A DNA stretch of 63,920 nucleotides from a virus (Duplodnaviria; Caudoviricetes), in IMG/VR virus record IMGVR_UViG_3300044464_000029, positions 1-63,920 of that record. One strand, written 5' to 3'. The notes beneath the pieces were generated by a model. That model searched no databases, was not told where the DNA came from, and saw nothing but the letters and a program-made list of their open reading frames with translations. Shown here piece by piece: positions 39,791-63,920 of the stretch (position 1 is its first letter; every line of letters begins with the position of its first letter). Both the position numbers and the translations under genes were made by a program.

Positions 39791-40141
39791 ATGACAGCTA
39801 CTAGACTAGATATCTCAATTGAACAAGGTGCCAAGTTCGAACGTAATATTCTTGTTAAAAACAACAATGGCACTGTTAAAGATCTAACTGGATATTCAGC
39901 TAGAATGCAGATTAGACCAACGTTCGCTTCCGATACAGTTTTATTAGAAGCGACTACCACCAATGGTCTAATAAGCATTAACAGTCCTGGTGGTGTTGTC
40001 ACCATTAGCTTGACGGCTGATGTAACAACAACTTTGGATTGGAGTGTTGCTGTATACGATCTAGAAATATACAGCAGTGTAACGGAAGTAATTCGCATTC
40101 TAGAAGGTAGTGCTTCTCTCAGTTTGGAAGTGACTCGATGA
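39791..40141 (+). CDS. Virion Ig-like (BppU N-terminal-like) protein
   Basis: IEQGAKF...DLTGYSARMQIR...YDLEI pattern. Confidence 0.65.
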   Translation: MTATRLDISIEQGAKFERNILVKNNNGTVKDLTGYSARMQIRPTFASDTVLLEATTTNGLISINSPGGVVTISLTADVTTTLDWSVAVYDLEIYSSVTEVIRILEGSASLSLEVTR

Positions 40142-40998
40142 ATGGTTTATTCGAAAAAGGACGTGAAGGATTCCTCGATGGCAGCATCGATTGGGATACT
40201 GACACGATCAAGGCAGCCCTGCTTGACCTTGGTACCGCTGATACTGGTATCAAGGCAATTGTAAGCTCGACAAATGCTACTCCAATTGTAGTAACAGTGA
40301 CATCACATGGATTTACTAACGGTGACTTTGTATTCATTGATGGGCATACAACCAACACTGCTGCCAATGGTTATTGGAAGGTTGCTAATCAAGCTACCAA
40401 CACAATTGAATTAACTCGCCCGGATGGTACAAACTCTGTGGGGAATGGTGTCGGTGGTGCTACTGGCTACGCCGTCAACTATGGTCCTAGTACTTCTGGC
40501 GACAACTATGATGACTTCAATGGTGCTGTAGTTGGTACCGATCAAACTCTTGGCACAAAAACAGTAGTTGCAGGTGTAGCTGACGCTGCCGATGCTACTT
40601 TCACATCAGTTACTGGTAACTCAGTTGAAGCAGTACTACTCTACAAAGACACTGGTACACCATCGACATCAAGAGTAATTGGTCTTATTACAGGTAAGCA
40701 GATTGTTACTTGTGCAGTACAGGCTGCATCATCTTCTACTTCTATTGTAGTTGATGCACTGACGTATGCAATTCCTTCCGGAACTGTATTAGCATTTAGC
40801 AATGGTGCTTCTGCAACACTATCTTCACTTGCTACGGCTGGAGATCGTTCCATTGCAGTCTCTTCTACTGCTGCAACGATTACGGCAAACTCACGTGCTC
40901 TTGCACCTATTACAGGTTCTGGACTTCCTGTAACTCCTAATGGTGGTAACATCGTGGTTACGTGGGATAACGGGGCAAATAAGATATTCAAACTGTAA
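40138..40998 (+). CDS. Tail-associated structural protein
   Basis: IDWDTDTIKAAL...LPVTPNGGNIVVTW...IFKL pattern with inserted beta modules. Confidence 0.7.
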   Translation: MNGLFEKGREGFLDGSIDWDTDTIKAALLDLGTADTGIKAIVSSTNATPIVVTVTSHGFTNGDFVFIDGHTTNTAANGYWKVANQATNTIELTRPDGTNSVGNGVGGATGYAVNYGPSTSGDNYDDFNGAVVGTDQTLGTKTVVAGVADAADATFTSVTGNSVEAVLLYKDTGTPSTSRVIGLITGKQIVTCAVQAASSSTSIVVDALTYAIPSGTVLAFSNGASATLSSLATAGDRSIAVSSTAATITANSRALAPITGSGLPVTPNGGNIVVTWDNGANKIFKL

Positions 40999-41017
40999 AG
41001 ATAAAATATAAAAGAAT

Positions 41018-41527
41018 TTGCTGATCAAGATGATATCAAATGATTTCAAAATTGGATGGATTGTAGGAATAATAGAAGGAGAAGGATGGATAGGCAGTGA
41101 CAAAGATGGTAGACCTAAAGTTCAAGTTGCAATGACTGATAGAGATACAATATACAAATTACTGGAGTGGGCAGAAACTGGAATAGTATCAGAGTCAGAT
41201 TGTGGAACTATTACTGGTAAAAGAATTTGGAAATGGGCAATCTATGCTAGAGAAGATGCAGGAAAATTTATTGAGAAAATATTACCTTATCTAGGTACAC
41301 GTAGGAGCGAAAGAGCTATAGAAGTTTTAAACAAATGGAAACTCTTAAAACCAAAACATGGTACCTCAACAACATGTAAACGTGGTCATGAATTGTCTGG
41401 AGAAAACTTATATATTGATGTTAGCCAAGAAAAATATCCTAGACGGCGTTGTAAGAAATGTATGGCCATAAGAGTCAATCAGTACAAGGAAAGATGGAAG
41501 GAGAGGTTGCAACATGCTTCGAGGTAA
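41018..41527 (+). mobile_element. Free-standing LAGLIDADG-type endonuclease with C-terminal Cys/His domain
   Basis: WIVGIIEGEGWI motif; VAMTD; ILPYL; CKRGH...RCKKC; AT-rich; flanked by duplicated target-gene end. Confidence 0.8.
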
Positions 41528-41576
41528 CGGAGCGAACAAAATTTTCAAACTCTAGTGAAAATGGTGAGGTGCTACC

Positions 41577-60792: not shown

Positions 60793-61027
60793 ATTTTTCC
60801 TTAATGTTAAAGTGTCCATGTGCACGTACGTACTCATTAAATCAAATGTGCACGTACGTGGTCAAAGAAACTTTACGTTGCTGGTGTTTGTATATTTAGA
60901 ATCCAATTCCAGAACCCAGCCCAAACCTCTGGTACTCCGGCCCTGATCATGACCAATATTGCTAGAAATCCAATTACCATTAGGATCTTCTTGAAAGTTC
61001 CCAAAATTCATATCCAATCTTAAATTG

Positions 61028-61237
61028 TTATTTCTTAATTATAATGCTAACAGAAGGTTGTGGACCACTTGGACTAGTGTTAGGTTTACCTGTTTGATTC
61101 GGACAGGCATTGTCTGCACCGGGTGGTGGATGACAAATTGTATCATCGCCACACTTAGCTGCCATACCAAGCACAGTAAGTACTAATGCTGTAATGGCAA
61201 TTGAGATCTTAGTGATCTCCTTTTTCCCAATAGCCAT
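61028..61237 (-). CDS. Small secreted/lipoprotein-like protein
   Basis: Basic N-terminus, hydrophobic helix, MAAKC then Pro-rich tail. Confidence 0.45.
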   Translation of the reverse strand: MAIGKKEITKISIAITALVLTVLGMAAKCGDDTICHPPPGADNACPNQTGKPNTSPSGPQPSVSIIIKK

Positions 61238-61927
61238 GACTTGGTCCTTCCTCTTCCCAGTCCTGTTGTAGTTCATCTTCGTCTGCATCTGGCTTAGCGG
61301 TCGATTCTTTTTCACCATTGTCAAATGCTTTGACTACATCTTCAACTGGTTCATCTTCTTCGTAGAAATCATTGACTACAGTATCGTCGTCACGTTGCAA
61401 ATATTCCGCAACACCTTCAACATCTACAGCAGTTGAATCATTCTCCACTACTACACCAGCGAACTCAAGCTTAGCAGCTTGAATACCTTGATAGTTTTCA
61501 CATTCGACTGGACCACTATACCAGGTAAACGAGCAACCGCAACCAGCTTCACCTTTGACGTGATTCCAACCACCTGCTACGTGCGCGATCCACTCGGTAG
61601 TACCGCTGGCGCCAAAAAATTTCTGTATAAATTCTATCCAATTTTCATTAGTAATCATTTTTCCGACTTCTTTTTAGGTAAGTGAGTTGCTAATTCAACA
61701 AGAGATTCACAAAAATTTACAATTGCATCATTGAATTGATCTCTTACTTGTTTTCTTTCAAGCCATTCATTATGTAACTCAACGATATGTTCAGCTAGTT
61801 CTTTGGTATCAAACTCAGAAATTAAATAATGTAAATTTTCCGAACTCATCACTAGCCATCTTGATTCGGATTCGAATTCTGAATCAGATTGCAACCACCA
61901 TTGACAATTTATATCGTCACGCATCAA
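61209..61927 (-). other. Two hypothetical acidic genes (61209-61658, 61655-61927)
   Basis: Overlapping minus-strand ORFs. Confidence 0.6.
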
Positions 61928-63334
61928 TCATCATCCTCATCACTAATTTCTTCAAGCTCTGGATCGAACTTGCTATCACCAATCAGTCTTCGAATCCATT
62001 GCCATTTTTGTTGAATTACCTTGATACGTTTGCCATCGATAGTATCTTTGGCAATGATATCAATAACTTGAACGGCTGATTTCTGTCCGATTCGGTGTAG
62101 TCTATCTTCAGCCTGAAGATTCAATGCATTGGACCAAGATCTGTCTGTGAAAATAACAATACTAGCGGCAGTAAGTGTGATACCAACCCCACCAGCAGCA
62201 ATAGTGCCAGCAAATACCTGTATCTTGCCATCTTGGAAGCCAGAAATGATTCTAGAACGTTCATCACTCGGCGTTTCTCCAATGAACTTCCCACAGGTAA
62301 TACCCTTCTTCTCCAGCCGCTTAGCTAACAGTTTTATTACCTGAGCAAATTGGCTGAACACTACAACTTGTTGTCCTGTGGACTCTATTACATCCATGAC
62401 AGCATCGAGCTTACTTGATGGTTCAGATAGCATCATCTTTTGACGTTCATTGTCCCACTCAGCAAATGCACAAGCAAACTGTTGTAGACGAGTAAGCTGG
62501 GCAATAACTACTGGGGCAACTACCGGCAAATGTTCTTGCTCACCGATCCAAGCTAACATATCATTCTTCATTGAGTTATATGCTCGACGTTGCTGTGGGT
62601 GTAACTCTACATCTATCTGGGTATAATATTTCTCAGGTAGATCAAACAGCACATCTTCCTTCTTTCTACGAATGTAGAAAGCTTCCATTTCTTGCTGTAA
62701 TCTTTCAGGATTGTTAACTCCAACAATTGTTTTATAACCATTGAAGTTATCAAACATAATATGATCATTATAGTATTTCCAATAGCTGGACCAATACTTA
62801 GGATACAACCAATTTAGAATACTCCAGAGATCATCTGGCTTATCAAATGCTGGTGTACCTGTTAGTGCACTTTTATATCCAGCAGGAATTTCCTTTAGAG
62901 CTATGGACTGCTTGGACTTTCTATTCTGAATTGCGTGTGCTTCATCTGCTATTACGTGAAACCACTTTACCTCTGTTAGTTCAGGCATAAGCCGAAGAGC
63001 TGGCCAGTGACAAATGAATACATCATATGCGTCTCCGGCCAGCTCTTCTACAAAATAGCTTCGATCTTTATTATTGATAGGTAAAATCCGCAAGTCAGAT
63101 GACCAAGCAAACCATGCCCTAGTCCAAGTAGAAACCATAGCTAGTGGGCAGATAACTAGTGTCTTAAGTTTGTGATTTGGAAAATCTGATCTACGCTTAA
63201 GATCCAATGCAATTGCCTCTATAGTTTTCCCGAGGCCCAGGTCTCATGTCGTCACCTATGAGAACGGATTTAACCCTCTCAAGTTTTTCAATACATTCCT
63301 TCTGAAAAGGAAACAATTTTAATGGTGACGACAT
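61924..63334 (-). CDS. SNF2-family helicase; frame broken by 7 extra nt in Walker A
   Basis: DEAH, LTGTP and QAEDRLHRIGQ motifs; N-terminus MSSPLKLFPFQ...LIGDDM lies in a different frame from GLGKTIEA. Confidence 0.85.
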
Positions 63335-63336
63335 TT

Positions 63337-63873
63337 TTACATCACCTCCCCAGCTCGGAAGCGTCTAACCGCTTCATACCGACATGTTCTACATTCTCGC
63401 CATCCTCTTGGATCAACATAGATGTTTTCACCAAAAAAGTCATGACCATTTATACATTCTGTTTTCAAAATTCCGTTCAAACCTCGCCTTTGATTTTCTT
63501 TATGTGTCACAGCTTCTAAATCATGAGGACTTACACATTCATGAACACGACACAAATGATCTATGATCAAACCATCTGGAATTAATCCATGGAAAATCAT
63601 ATAAGTTATTATATGCGCTGGACGTTGATTCTTACGTTGATTGTTGAACTTATCTCGATAGCGCCAAGCATATGTTCCATAAAGAGCAGAACCACCTAGT
63701 GCACCGGTCCAAATCCAACAACCATCGTCGTTTAATCTGATTTTCTTTAGGAAGAGTTCTATTCTCATTCCAAAAAGTGGACCTGGTTCATCATAATCAC
63801 CAATTAGTACTGCCTTTACTCGTTCTAGTTTCTCAACTGCCTCTTTTTGGAATGGGAACAGTTTCACGATCAC
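63337..63873 (-). mobile_element. HNH endonuclease fused in frame to a duplicate helicase N-terminus
   Basis: GCWIWTGA, IDHLCRVHECVSPHDLEAVTHKEN; C-terminal CINGH...ECRTC; first 26 aa match the helicase start. Confidence 0.85.
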
Positions 63874-63920
63874 CTCCTAACGGGTTTCTCCACCTGTTAA
63901 TGTCTGATCTAAGATGAATC

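Follow-up and report, generated by a model that had tools for sequence, protein, structure and literature searches.

An HNH endonuclease cassette with a short frame-breaking insertion in the Walker A motif of an SNF2 helicase gene from a phage

In phage T4, the element at gene 60 combines the HNH homing endonuclease MobA, a homologous replacement region encoded by the insert (HomR) and a 50-nt gap that is bypassed during translation; the homologous region shares 67-81% DNA identity with its target, the gap blocks nicking by MobA and often outlasts the nuclease, and in phage Aeh1 it is MobE that splits nrdA (10.1101/2022.08.31.505936). Here, a comparable arrangement is described in IMG/VR record IMGVR_UViG_3300044464_000029, the entire 63,920-bp contig of which, a phage-like genome, is referred to below as the window. 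In this contig, the codons for Walker A (motif I) of an SNF2 helicase are interrupted by a mobile HNH_3 cassette. The resident start and the first 29 helicase codons (copy A, with its junction codons) are kept upstream and fused in frame to the nuclease, a second N-terminus carried by the cassette (copy B) follows the nuclease gene, and a 7-nt insertion separates copy B from the frame of the helicase body. All HNH and helicase features lie on the minus strand. In what follows, L-numbers designate the IMG/VR or metagenome loci, and P-numbers the database proteins, with which the window was compared.

Set against the published passages on the T4 element, the helicase locus shows the same design in several respects. 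In both, an HNH nuclease gene lies inside a conserved enzyme gene and the element brings its own diverged copy of the target segment (here copy B, inside the 556-nt window cassette), with an insertion at the 3' end of that copy, where the coding sequence is highly conserved (7 nt in the window, 5-8 nt in the other loci). The upstream host open reading frame (ORF) is likewise extended in frame into the element, the nuclease is often pseudogenised or lost with the gap persisting, and recent repeated insertions stand beside near-identical empty alleles. However, the target is motif I of a SNF2 helicase here and the Toprim domain of a topoisomerase there. Besides, the target segment is duplicated here whereas it is deleted and replaced in T4; the upstream piece amounts here to about 29 codons fused to the nuclease itself; and the downstream gene is complete here, instead of being half of a split enzyme. 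Finally, the gap is 5-8 nt long instead of 50 nt, no stem-loop or nascent-peptide signal could be recognised around it, and its bypass is putative.

Very short gaps are also described in the terminase genes of Streptomyces phages of the Hau3 type, where they are led by UUA and measure 10 nt, or 7 nt in a prophage, and where, for gaps of 7-10 nt, bypass in E. coli has mass-spectrometric support (PMC10732093). As in these terminases, a very short non-coding block is found here at a conserved phage enzyme site that is intolerant of extra residues, and gaps led by TTA occur in L176/L181 and in the type deduced for P0048-P0050. In contrast, the passages describing the terminase gaps propose them as host-state sensors and draw no link to a homing endonuclease, whereas an HNH cassette is involved here, and the window gap starts with AGA, a common codon in the phage.

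Free-standing endonucleases of T-even phages, such as SegG, spread by 'intronless homing'. The helicase locus resembles these Seg and Mob genes in having the nuclease gene beside or inside its target gene and, presumably, in spreading by repair of the cut unoccupied allele with co-conversion of the flanks. One of the loci compared here, L220, has the plain intergenic form known from them, with the HNH gene between the upstream gene and the helicase and no copy A. Immunity in the T-even systems is usually due to point polymorphisms or to the insertion itself, whereas here a gene start is rebuilt and a frame-breaking gap added. In organelle genomes, endonuclease genes replace gene termini, as in the C-terminal replacement of atp6 in Allomyces. 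There too, an endonuclease ORF arrives with a foreign copy of a gene end and the displaced end stays as a short duplicate; an element near 41 kb in the window is of this C-terminal form. At the helicase gene, unlike in atp6, it is the 5' end that is replaced, the displaced end is still translated as the leader of the nuclease, and a coding gap is added. The literature searches listed no paper on an HNH cassette or a short coding gap in SNF2 motif I, but supplementary files may contain further bypass-like cassettes.

Structure of the cassette and the frame break at Walker A

What tells most about the locus is a 7-nt frame break, which was overlooked in the first reading of the sequence. Compared with the uninterrupted locus L001, with the joint of an empty allele and with the intact helicase P0015, seven nucleotides (AGACCTG, 63238..63244) are inserted between the ATG that encodes the methionine of DDM and the codons GGC CTC GGG AAA ACT of the GLGKT motif. 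In L001, which is the closest DNA relative (80% protein identity), the corresponding codons run GAC GAT ATG GGC CTC GGG AAG ACT. Hence the insertion places the helicase body in the +1 frame relative to copy B, and copy B is not joined to it in frame. In the zero frame, DDM is followed by RPGPRENYRGNCIGS and a stop at 63197, giving a 45-residue product; the tail beyond the gap codons RPG (..PRENYRGNCIGS, then the stop; 63197..63237) overlaps the start of the helicase body. In the +1 frame, the body is an intact ORF from GLGKT to its stop (61924..63237; SNF2-rel_dom 1.7e-29, Helicase_C 5e-18), 98.4% identical over residues 25-463 to P0015, an intact helicase of 463 residues. In this frame a TGA stands just before GAC CTG GGC, there is no ATG, GTG or TTG ahead of GLGKT, and the first usable start is the TTG at 63207, past the P-loop. 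Therefore, no ordinary start gives a helicase with a Walker A motif. The window contig has only one such helicase, and no second, compensating copy was found in it.

The extent of the cassette is given by unoccupied alleles. In a contig of a third study, 63239 is joined to 63796 with TATC between them (depth 9.1; one contig, with a shorter side of 42 nt). Read on the minus strand, the joint is GTA CTA ATT GGT GAT GAT ATG GGC CTC, that is VLIGDDMGL, a copy-A-like N-terminus running straight into the helicase. Together with the intact P0015, this joint identifies copy A as the resident start and about 556 nt (63795..63240) as the insert; relative to the empty allele, the 556 nt of 63240..63795 replace 4 nt. 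An N-terminus of the copy A type is carried by the intact helicases P0016 and P0015.

Copy A lies at what was the start of the ancestral helicase gene, because the gene upstream of it, whose 3' end was read from the sequence at 63877..63918 (..LDQTLTGGETR; stop TAG at 63879..63877), has a C-terminus resembling that of the gene preceding the helicase in L181 (..YDQTLTPGSETH). An AGGAGG ribosome-binding site (RBS; 63873..63878) overlaps the stop of this upstream gene; it is the RBS of the resident helicase start and now serves the HNH fusion ORF, and a comparable site (GGGAGGTGAATC-ATG) is present in the empty allele L001. Translation of copy A starts at the GTG at 63867, 5 nt past AGGAGG, the ORF listing offering the GTG at 63873 as an alternative. 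From 63867, the fusion ORF (63337..63867, stop TAA at 63339..63337) encodes 176 aa and is the same as database protein P0001. Its first part is copy A (63778..63864), which consists of the resident helicase N-terminus KLFPFQKEAVEKLERVKAVLIGD (63864 to 63796) and the junction codons YDEPGP, the nuclease continuing in the same frame. The HNH_3 catalytic domain lies at 63487..63621 (Pfam PF13392, E = 3.8e-11, residues 85-129 of the 178-aa ORF; 42.9 bits for a cutoff of 24.8), in agreement with a match to PHROG 826 'HNH endonuclease' at E = 1.7e-41. No purine-rich site or RBS precedes an internal ATG (residue 34, before RIELFLKK). The nuclease has no start signals of its own and is translated from the resident helicase start. 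The claim of an earlier note on this DNA that the HNH gene takes over the helicase start is borne out: the HNH ORF uses the original RBS, start and first 29 or so codons of the helicase.

The same note had seen a second N-terminus with its own RBS after the nuclease gene; this is indeed what is found, and the second N-terminus is borne by the cassette. A GGAGG site (63345..63349) lies within the last HNH codons, and the HNH stop TAA stands 2 nt upstream of the ATG of copy B at 63334. The stretch around this RBS, GGAGGTGATG..ATGTCGTC, is conserved in L183, L257 and L220, and more loosely in L176 (GGCGGTGATC) and L004 (GGAGGTGGTG). Copy B itself (63245..63334) reads MSSPLKLFPFQKECIEKLERVKSVLIGDDM, or MSSPL-KLFPFQKECIEKLERVKSVLIGD when the 23-residue match to copy A (63319 to 63251) is marked off; the ATG at 63334 opens MSSPL-KLFPFQKECIEKLERVKSVLIGDDM. 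An intein was rejected, as no Hint domain and only HNH_3 is present in the window ORF. A group I intron was rejected as well: no relevant Rfam match was obtained at E<=1 in 61000..63920, the ORF takes up the whole element, and the 2 nt that separate the HNH stop from the next ATG leave no space for a ribozyme.

That an assembly chimera or a sequencing indel could fake both the duplication and the frameshift is extremely improbable. For the probable source sample, a second contig that was assembled separately covers 61900..63885 without a single difference. The gap, copy B and the end of the HNH gene are covered by a contig of a second study (63149..63384; 2 substitutions, no indel), and a contig of a third study covers 63196..63363 with 4 substitutions and no alignment gap. 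P0014, a 45-residue ORF of a different contig, has the same frame break, with the 7-nt insertion present; it differs from the window by three residues in the zero frame, and all three changes are silent in the helicase frame (decoded by hand; one is 63229 C>T). Two points could be held in favour of an artefact, namely that the window contig ends 47 nt upstream of copy A, and that the joint between copy A and the HNH gene (about 63778..63800) is spanned solely by contigs of the probable source sample. Yet this joint is corroborated by seven homologous fusion ORFs from other assemblies, and locus L004 has the same layout. The doubt raised by the earlier note, that the structure might be a chimera, is therefore removed by the identical, separately built contig and by the two other studies that cross 63238..63244 without a gap.

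Two further observations concern the contig. In a related contig of another study, the HNH gene has a 15-nt in-frame insertion just past window position 63685. No terminal overlap or circularity was seen between 1-260 and 63877-63920, and the missing part of the upstream gene is absent from the other end. As the contig ends inside the upstream gene and has no terminal overlap, the genome is probably incomplete, or its ends are fixed here.

Recurrence of the gap and mobility of the cassette

With the helicase alignment, 80 related IMG/VR helicase loci were found. The N-terminus and motif I are uninterrupted in 69 of them, L193 has an intein in motif I, and five could not be judged (four cut by contig ends, one matching only from a motif II intein onward). 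The last five have a short insertion in motif I, and all five bear hallmarks of the cassette. Presence or absence is hence a matter of one fixed site, at which 69 of the 75 judged relatives are uninterrupted and the 98.4%-identical P0015 is intact. The insertions are of several kinds. L176 and L181 share an 8-nt gap (ATG TTACCTCG GGT) and a remnant of the HNH gene reduced to its last codons, and L183 has a 6-nt gap with an in-frame stop (ATG TAG CTG GGT), the HNH gene being gone while the conserved RBS and an N-terminus of the MSS type are present. In L220, the gap is of 5 nt (ACT TGACT GGT AAG ACG), with a full HNH gene upstream (43% identical over 90 residues) and no copy A. In L251, which is the same as L004, it is of 7 nt (ACA GGT TGA A GGA AAA ACG), and the HNH gene is present with its frame broken.

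A pattern scan, in which GACGACATG was followed by 4-9 nt and by GLGKT codons, gave five matches in IMG/VR viral contigs, all five at SNF2 motif I. Two of them were new, L257 (ATG TAG CTG GGC) and L254 (ATG GGC TAA GGC CTC), the latter in a larger SNF2 gene, which has an intein as well. The 19 matches obtained in 596 Gb of prokaryote genomes all lay outside helicases (the number estimated by chance being about 26), and no cultured host or prophage was obtained. The gap is kept after loss of the nuclease in L181, where the HNH tail alone is left, and in L183 and L257, which have no HNH gene; the helicase bodies are intact. These loci without a nuclease keep the GGAGGTGATG..ATGTCGTC stretch together with the N-terminal extension ('MSS') that is usual in copies carried by the cassette. 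A gap and an intact body are likewise present in L254, which has no HNH gene nearby and no trace of one and is without the conserved RBS and MSS marks; it possibly represents the remains of a different cassette. At 4180-4340 of L254, the gene is split just past the Q motif (..LPFQKAAIDYCLRCFGEI-stop-stop), and a new RBS and start (MKFMDTNLKGGQTPCCRGVLIADDMG) precede the GGC-TAA-GGC gap.

Traces of such gaps are also present among database proteins. P0048-P0050 start with ..TTCYLGLGKT, which is the +1 reading of ..GDDM followed by seven bases, and would represent another 7-nt gap, beginning with TTA. The source contigs of helicases P0049 and P0017 are equal in size to those of HNH proteins P0003 and P0002, respectively. 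N-termini are truncated or odd in 8 of 67 related database helicases, most likely owing to cassette gaps; in P0017 and P0043, the gene callers place the start at MGLGKT.

The helicase gene is a preferred site for mobile elements of three kinds. As P-loop inteins and group I introns do, the cassette uses a site that other elements also occupy in this family, where inteins were observed in motif I (L193, 2501-4345; ..THN/TVTAIALD), in motif II (L199, 2501-3544; ..VHN/CHGLQNRK) and in motif VI (L254, 4375-7185; ..VHN/CHRIGQ).

The nuclease homologues tell of the same association. All seven homologues at 57-78% identity to the window HNH protein (P0002-P0008) have a helicase-type N-terminus, compared with none of five at 49% identity or below. 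In P0002-P0008, the joint that follows this N-terminus is conserved as DD-xx-PGP-LYG or a shorter form. The leader of P0008 includes 24 residues (ELYDFQ...LLGD) identical to the N-terminus of another helicase clade (L186). The same layout is present in L004, although its helicase is only about 54% identical to that of the window: copy A, HNH gene, copy B and a 7-nt insertion in motif I. There, the stop of the upstream gene is followed by copy A (MELFDFQAETVNKLEPK..RGSLIAH), which runs into an HNH sequence 64% identical to that of the window, and copy B (MLLFDFQQETVDRLESKRGALIAHDMGTG) begins with an ATG directly at the HNH stop. Two perfect tandem copies of a 17-nt stretch (2358-2391) in copy A break the frame between copy A and the HNH gene, reflecting either a decaying nuclease or an assembly slip. 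Relatives of L004 (L003, L005 and L006) are empty.

Copy B of the window differs from that of L181 at only 5 of 19 codons comparable at synonymous sites, as against 190 of 333 between the two helicase bodies (Fisher P = 0.015). This suggests that copy B travels with the cassette lineage and not with the helicase body. In a quick maximum-likelihood (ML) tree built from 47 helicase bodies, 14 distant rows having been dropped by an anchor filter, the nine alleles of the gap type are interspersed with intact ones. The five clearest cases each have an intact nearest neighbour (window and P0015, P0017 and P0018, P0062 and P0024, P0048 and P0034, P0043 and P0045/46), a pattern that points to repeated recent invasion. 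Four intact helicases (P0030, P0052, P0070 and P0072) have an N-terminal extension of the cassette type (MSSPMKLYPFQ.., MSPPLKLYPFQ..); these may be former carriers that have lost both nuclease and gap, or the lineage that donated copy B. The leader of the HNH protein P0007 is also of the cassette type (MSSTMRLYPFQ..DDMGPGP), which hints at serial invasion.

Searches with other scopes gave few additional cases. A metagenome scan with the HNH alignment returned at least 80 loci, all at most 47% identical, and no further helicase cassette among the matches listed; the IMG/VR scan with the same alignment had a sole close match, L013, which is the L004 contig; and blastn of the 2-kb region against GenBank phages gave no match. 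The earlier note had called for a survey of peptide duplications flanking endonucleases. When the 80 loci of the HNH scan were screened for them, the duplication was convincing only in L013, L019 and L070 among the matches listed, other high scores being due to low-complexity reads of GC-rich DNA. In L019 (2177-3405), a phage contig with 66% G+C, another HNH_3 ORF starts with ..SEALKFTLPVTVGRIAMHVDRS and is followed by the host gene start MSEPLRFTLPVTVGTIRMHVDRS; this host gene is in frame with its body and free of a gap, and the same take-over of a start has thus occurred in an unrelated gene. In L070 (1565-2710), the ORF ahead of an HNH_3 gene is integrase-like, and a diverged second copy of its last 31 residues is found immediately past the nuclease; as in the 41-kb element of the window, the duplicated end is the C-terminal one. 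The proposal that terminus replacement is a recurrent design is borne out by the seven fusion homologues, by L004 and, in another gene family, by L019.

Codon divergence of the two N-terminal copies and the element at 41 kb

The earlier note had counted 20 identical residues out of 23 between copies A and B, with different codons at 17 of the 20 and at 9 of 11 two-fold degenerate positions, and these counts are exact. The likeness extends six codons further (to ..PGP), giving 23 identical residues of 29 and 20 different codons of 23; the DNA in register is identical at 53 of 87 positions, and the longest identical run is 5 nt. From these counts, the note had drawn a selection for maximal DNA divergence between the copies, which would prevent recombinational loss of the nuclease gene. 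We regard this as improbable. A nominal excess is indeed present, since only 11.4 differing codons are expected at saturation from the codon usage of the window (P(>=17 of 20) = 0.006; P(>=20 of 23) = 0.002; two-fold sites alone, P = 0.016). The fraction is also above that of the helicase bodies of the window and L001 (176 of 330; Fisher P = 0.005), and the short longest shared run could be taken in the same sense. However, among 457 pairs of related helicase N-termini with at least 12 identical residues, 14 reach a codon difference of at least 0.85 (mean 0.61, 95th percentile 0.846). With about 3% of natural pairs as divergent, the excess over saturation is marginal. Moreover, there is no difference from a saturated pair, the bodies of the window and L257 (125 of 189; P = 0.13), and the copies of L004 differ at 11 of 17 codons, which is the level of saturation. 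Saturation by itself removes identity of a length usable for recombination, and descent of copy B within a long-diverged cassette lineage suffices to explain the divergence, an extra selection against shared words being possible. The excess noted earlier therefore stands as a nominal one, absent in L004, and the selection drawn from it is weak.

The earlier note had also seen a parallel in an element at 41 kb and a general strategy used by two nuclease families in one genome. The counterpart does exist, on the plus strand at 40969-41555, and it too has a duplicated gene end, but in a C-terminal form. The gene at 40138..40998 ends with DNGANKIFKL-stop, the nuclease ORF occupies 41018..41527, and a second, out-of-frame copy (NGANKIFKL-stop, 41526..41555) differs at 6 of 9 codons and at the stop. 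In this element the C-terminus has been replaced and the displaced end has stayed in place. The N-terminal half of its nuclease is of a LAGLIDADG-like type (Pfam E = 2.8e-4, slightly short of the cutoff), and the ORF matches PHROG 5046 'HNH endonuclease'. To speak of two nuclease families calls for a qualification, since a module at the C-terminus (36% over 42 residues, E = 8e-6) is common to both nucleases.

Possible translation across the gap and its meaning

On balance, we favour the view that the locus combines an HNH cassette with an immunity gap at helicase motif I which is overcome by recoding, either a ribosomal hop or a +1 shift. The nuclease would cut or nick unoccupied helicase genes in the conserved DNA of motif I, a site of attack inferred because the left end of the cassette and the gap of copy B lie at the same helicase codons. 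Repair would then copy the cassette in, with the resident N-terminal codons and the upstream gene as left arm and the helicase body as right arm, and the replacement N-terminus would rebuild a complete helicase gene below the nuclease. Such a rebuilt copy would restore the nuclease target, and the P-loop would leave little room for protective mutations; hence a short insertion that breaks the target could serve as the mark of immunity of the carrier, as for T4 gene 60 and MobA. Since extra residues would not fit into the P-loop, the insertion would have to be skipped for helicase to be made, through a short hop or a +1 shift over it. The predicted products in the window would be ..LIGDDM/GLGKT by re-pairing of AUG at the CUG 7 nt on, ..LIGDD/LGLGKT by re-pairing of GAC at the GAC 7 nt on, and ..DDMRPGLGKT by a +1 shift; ..SVLIGDDMGLGK, ..SVLIGDDLGLGK and ..SVLIGDDMRPGLGK are the candidate junction peptides.

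The gaps themselves have features that could be expected from hopping. In 4 of 7 gap types, a zero-frame stop directly follows the last normal codon (P = 1.5e-4), and in 5 of 7 the last three bases of the gap match the preceding codon at two or more of three positions (P = 1.5e-3), the match being exact in L254 (GGC-TAA-GGC) and L220 (ACT-TG-ACT). A stop at the take-off site followed by the same or a near-identical codon occurs in L254 (GGC TAA GGC), L220 (ACT TGA CT, landing on ACT), L004 (GGT TGA A GGA) and L183/L257 (ATG TAG CTG), and re-pairing of the peptidyl-tRNA in these would resume translation at the exact wild-type motif. TTA stands at the start of the gap in L176/L181 and in the type deduced for P0048-P0050, and represents 3% of Leu codons in L181. 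A tentative extension, to which we would give somewhat less than an even chance, is that gaps of 5-8 nt begin as small duplications at the nuclease cut site and are later hopped through re-pairing at codon repeats, yielding wild-type enzyme. The locus would then add to T4 MobA/gene 60 a second system of nuclease plus bypass, with an evolutionary origin of its own.

Several points weigh against bypass under an immunity gap. The window gap has no stop codon, and its first codon is AGA, which makes up 31% of the Arg codons of the phage; the idea of a 'hungry codon' in the window was rejected on this ground. Its landing codon matches at only two of three bases (AUG/CUG), or exactly (GAC/GAC) at the cost of a Met>Leu change, and for the 8-nt gap of L176/L181 there is no landing codon that matches. 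Folding of the RNA around the gaps gave no consistent structure (Z-scores from -3.2 to +1.1), the empty L001 folding equally well; small, inconsistent hairpins were seen at the gaps of the window (AGGU..ACCU) and L176 (GGUGAC..GUUACC). The codon repeats at the gap ends could be relics of 5-7-nt tandem duplications and not the outcome of selection for hopping; indeed, GACATGA-GACCTGG in the window resembles a tandem duplication. The gap types located between ATG and GGC may share ancestry, and two of the types (P0048-P0050; P0017/P0043) were derived from protein sequences only. Besides, the 98.4% identity of the window body to intact P0015 and the position of gap alleles next to intact relatives count on the same side, and the intact helicase bodies are weak evidence of selection because the tree indicates recent insertions. 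The window HNH protein shows no likeness (BLASTP E = 0.87) to T4 gp60.1, a fragment of a mobA pseudogene and thus a remnant only, so that the parallel with MobA would be one of design and not of descent. Both the bypass of the gap and the activity of the HNH nuclease are inferred from the genes.

The same cassette could also operate without any recoding, the insertion simply knocking out a helicase that is dispensable or backed by the host, and the gap being a repair scar or the immunity mark of a parasitic element. This explanation, which we judge rather unlikely, would account well for the window allele, with neither a stop, a rare codon nor an exact landing codon that gives wild-type product, for L176/L181 without a landing match, and for gap lengths of 5, 6, 7 and 8 nt that show no preference of frame. 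The occurrence of gap alleles among intact ones on the quick tree, five of them with an intact nearest neighbour, fits young insertions, and the window body is only 1.6% away from P0015. On the other hand, at least seven distinct gap-bearing bodies are open over their full length at the DNA level, including three with the nuclease deleted (L181, L183 and L257) and one with the nuclease frameshifted (L004). Every cassette retains an RBS, a start codon and an N-terminus with the conserved residues (..F.FQ..LIGDDM), which would be pointless for a dead gene. The enrichment of stops at gap starts and of codon repeats at gap ends also argues against a plain knock-out, as do the three differences between the window and P0014 just past the gap, all silent in the helicase frame. 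A helicase made in two pieces, in which a 45-residue Q-motif peptide would associate non-covalently with a body re-initiated near motif I, is very unlikely. In L220 a TTG overlaps the stop (ACT TGA / TTG ACT GGT AAG ACG), a CTG directly follows the TAG in L183 and L257, P0017 and P0043 are called from MGLGKT, and the MobA and MobE elements, according to the passages on them, give split gene products that reassemble (10.1101/2022.08.31.505936). Nevertheless, the window has its TGA before GAC CTG GGC and no ATG, GTG or TTG before GLGKT, the TTG at 63207 lying past the P-loop; L004 and L254 have no start codon after the stop; and a P-loop cut between its glycines is unlikely to be functional.

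Programmed translational bypass has long been based on one natural system, T4 gene 60/MobA, and a few candidates. The helicase cassettes would display the same logic in an unrelated nuclease lineage, target gene and phage group: a nuclease is combined with a new copy that replaces the target segment and with an insertion that cannot be translated, at a site whose conservation leaves no scope for mutation. They provide at least six distinct natural gap variants at one P-loop, with matched empty alleles, and these gaps are short enough for simple reporters. This makes it possible to test whether a coding gap is a general immunity device of homing endonucleases, and how short and poor in signals a natural bypass can be. 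If the recoding of these gaps is true, tiny coding gaps in conserved phage genes, such as that of the Hau3 terminase, may in general be footprints of homing-endonuclease immunity. If the helicases are dead instead, a homing element would repeatedly inactivate a widespread phage replication gene and yet spread.

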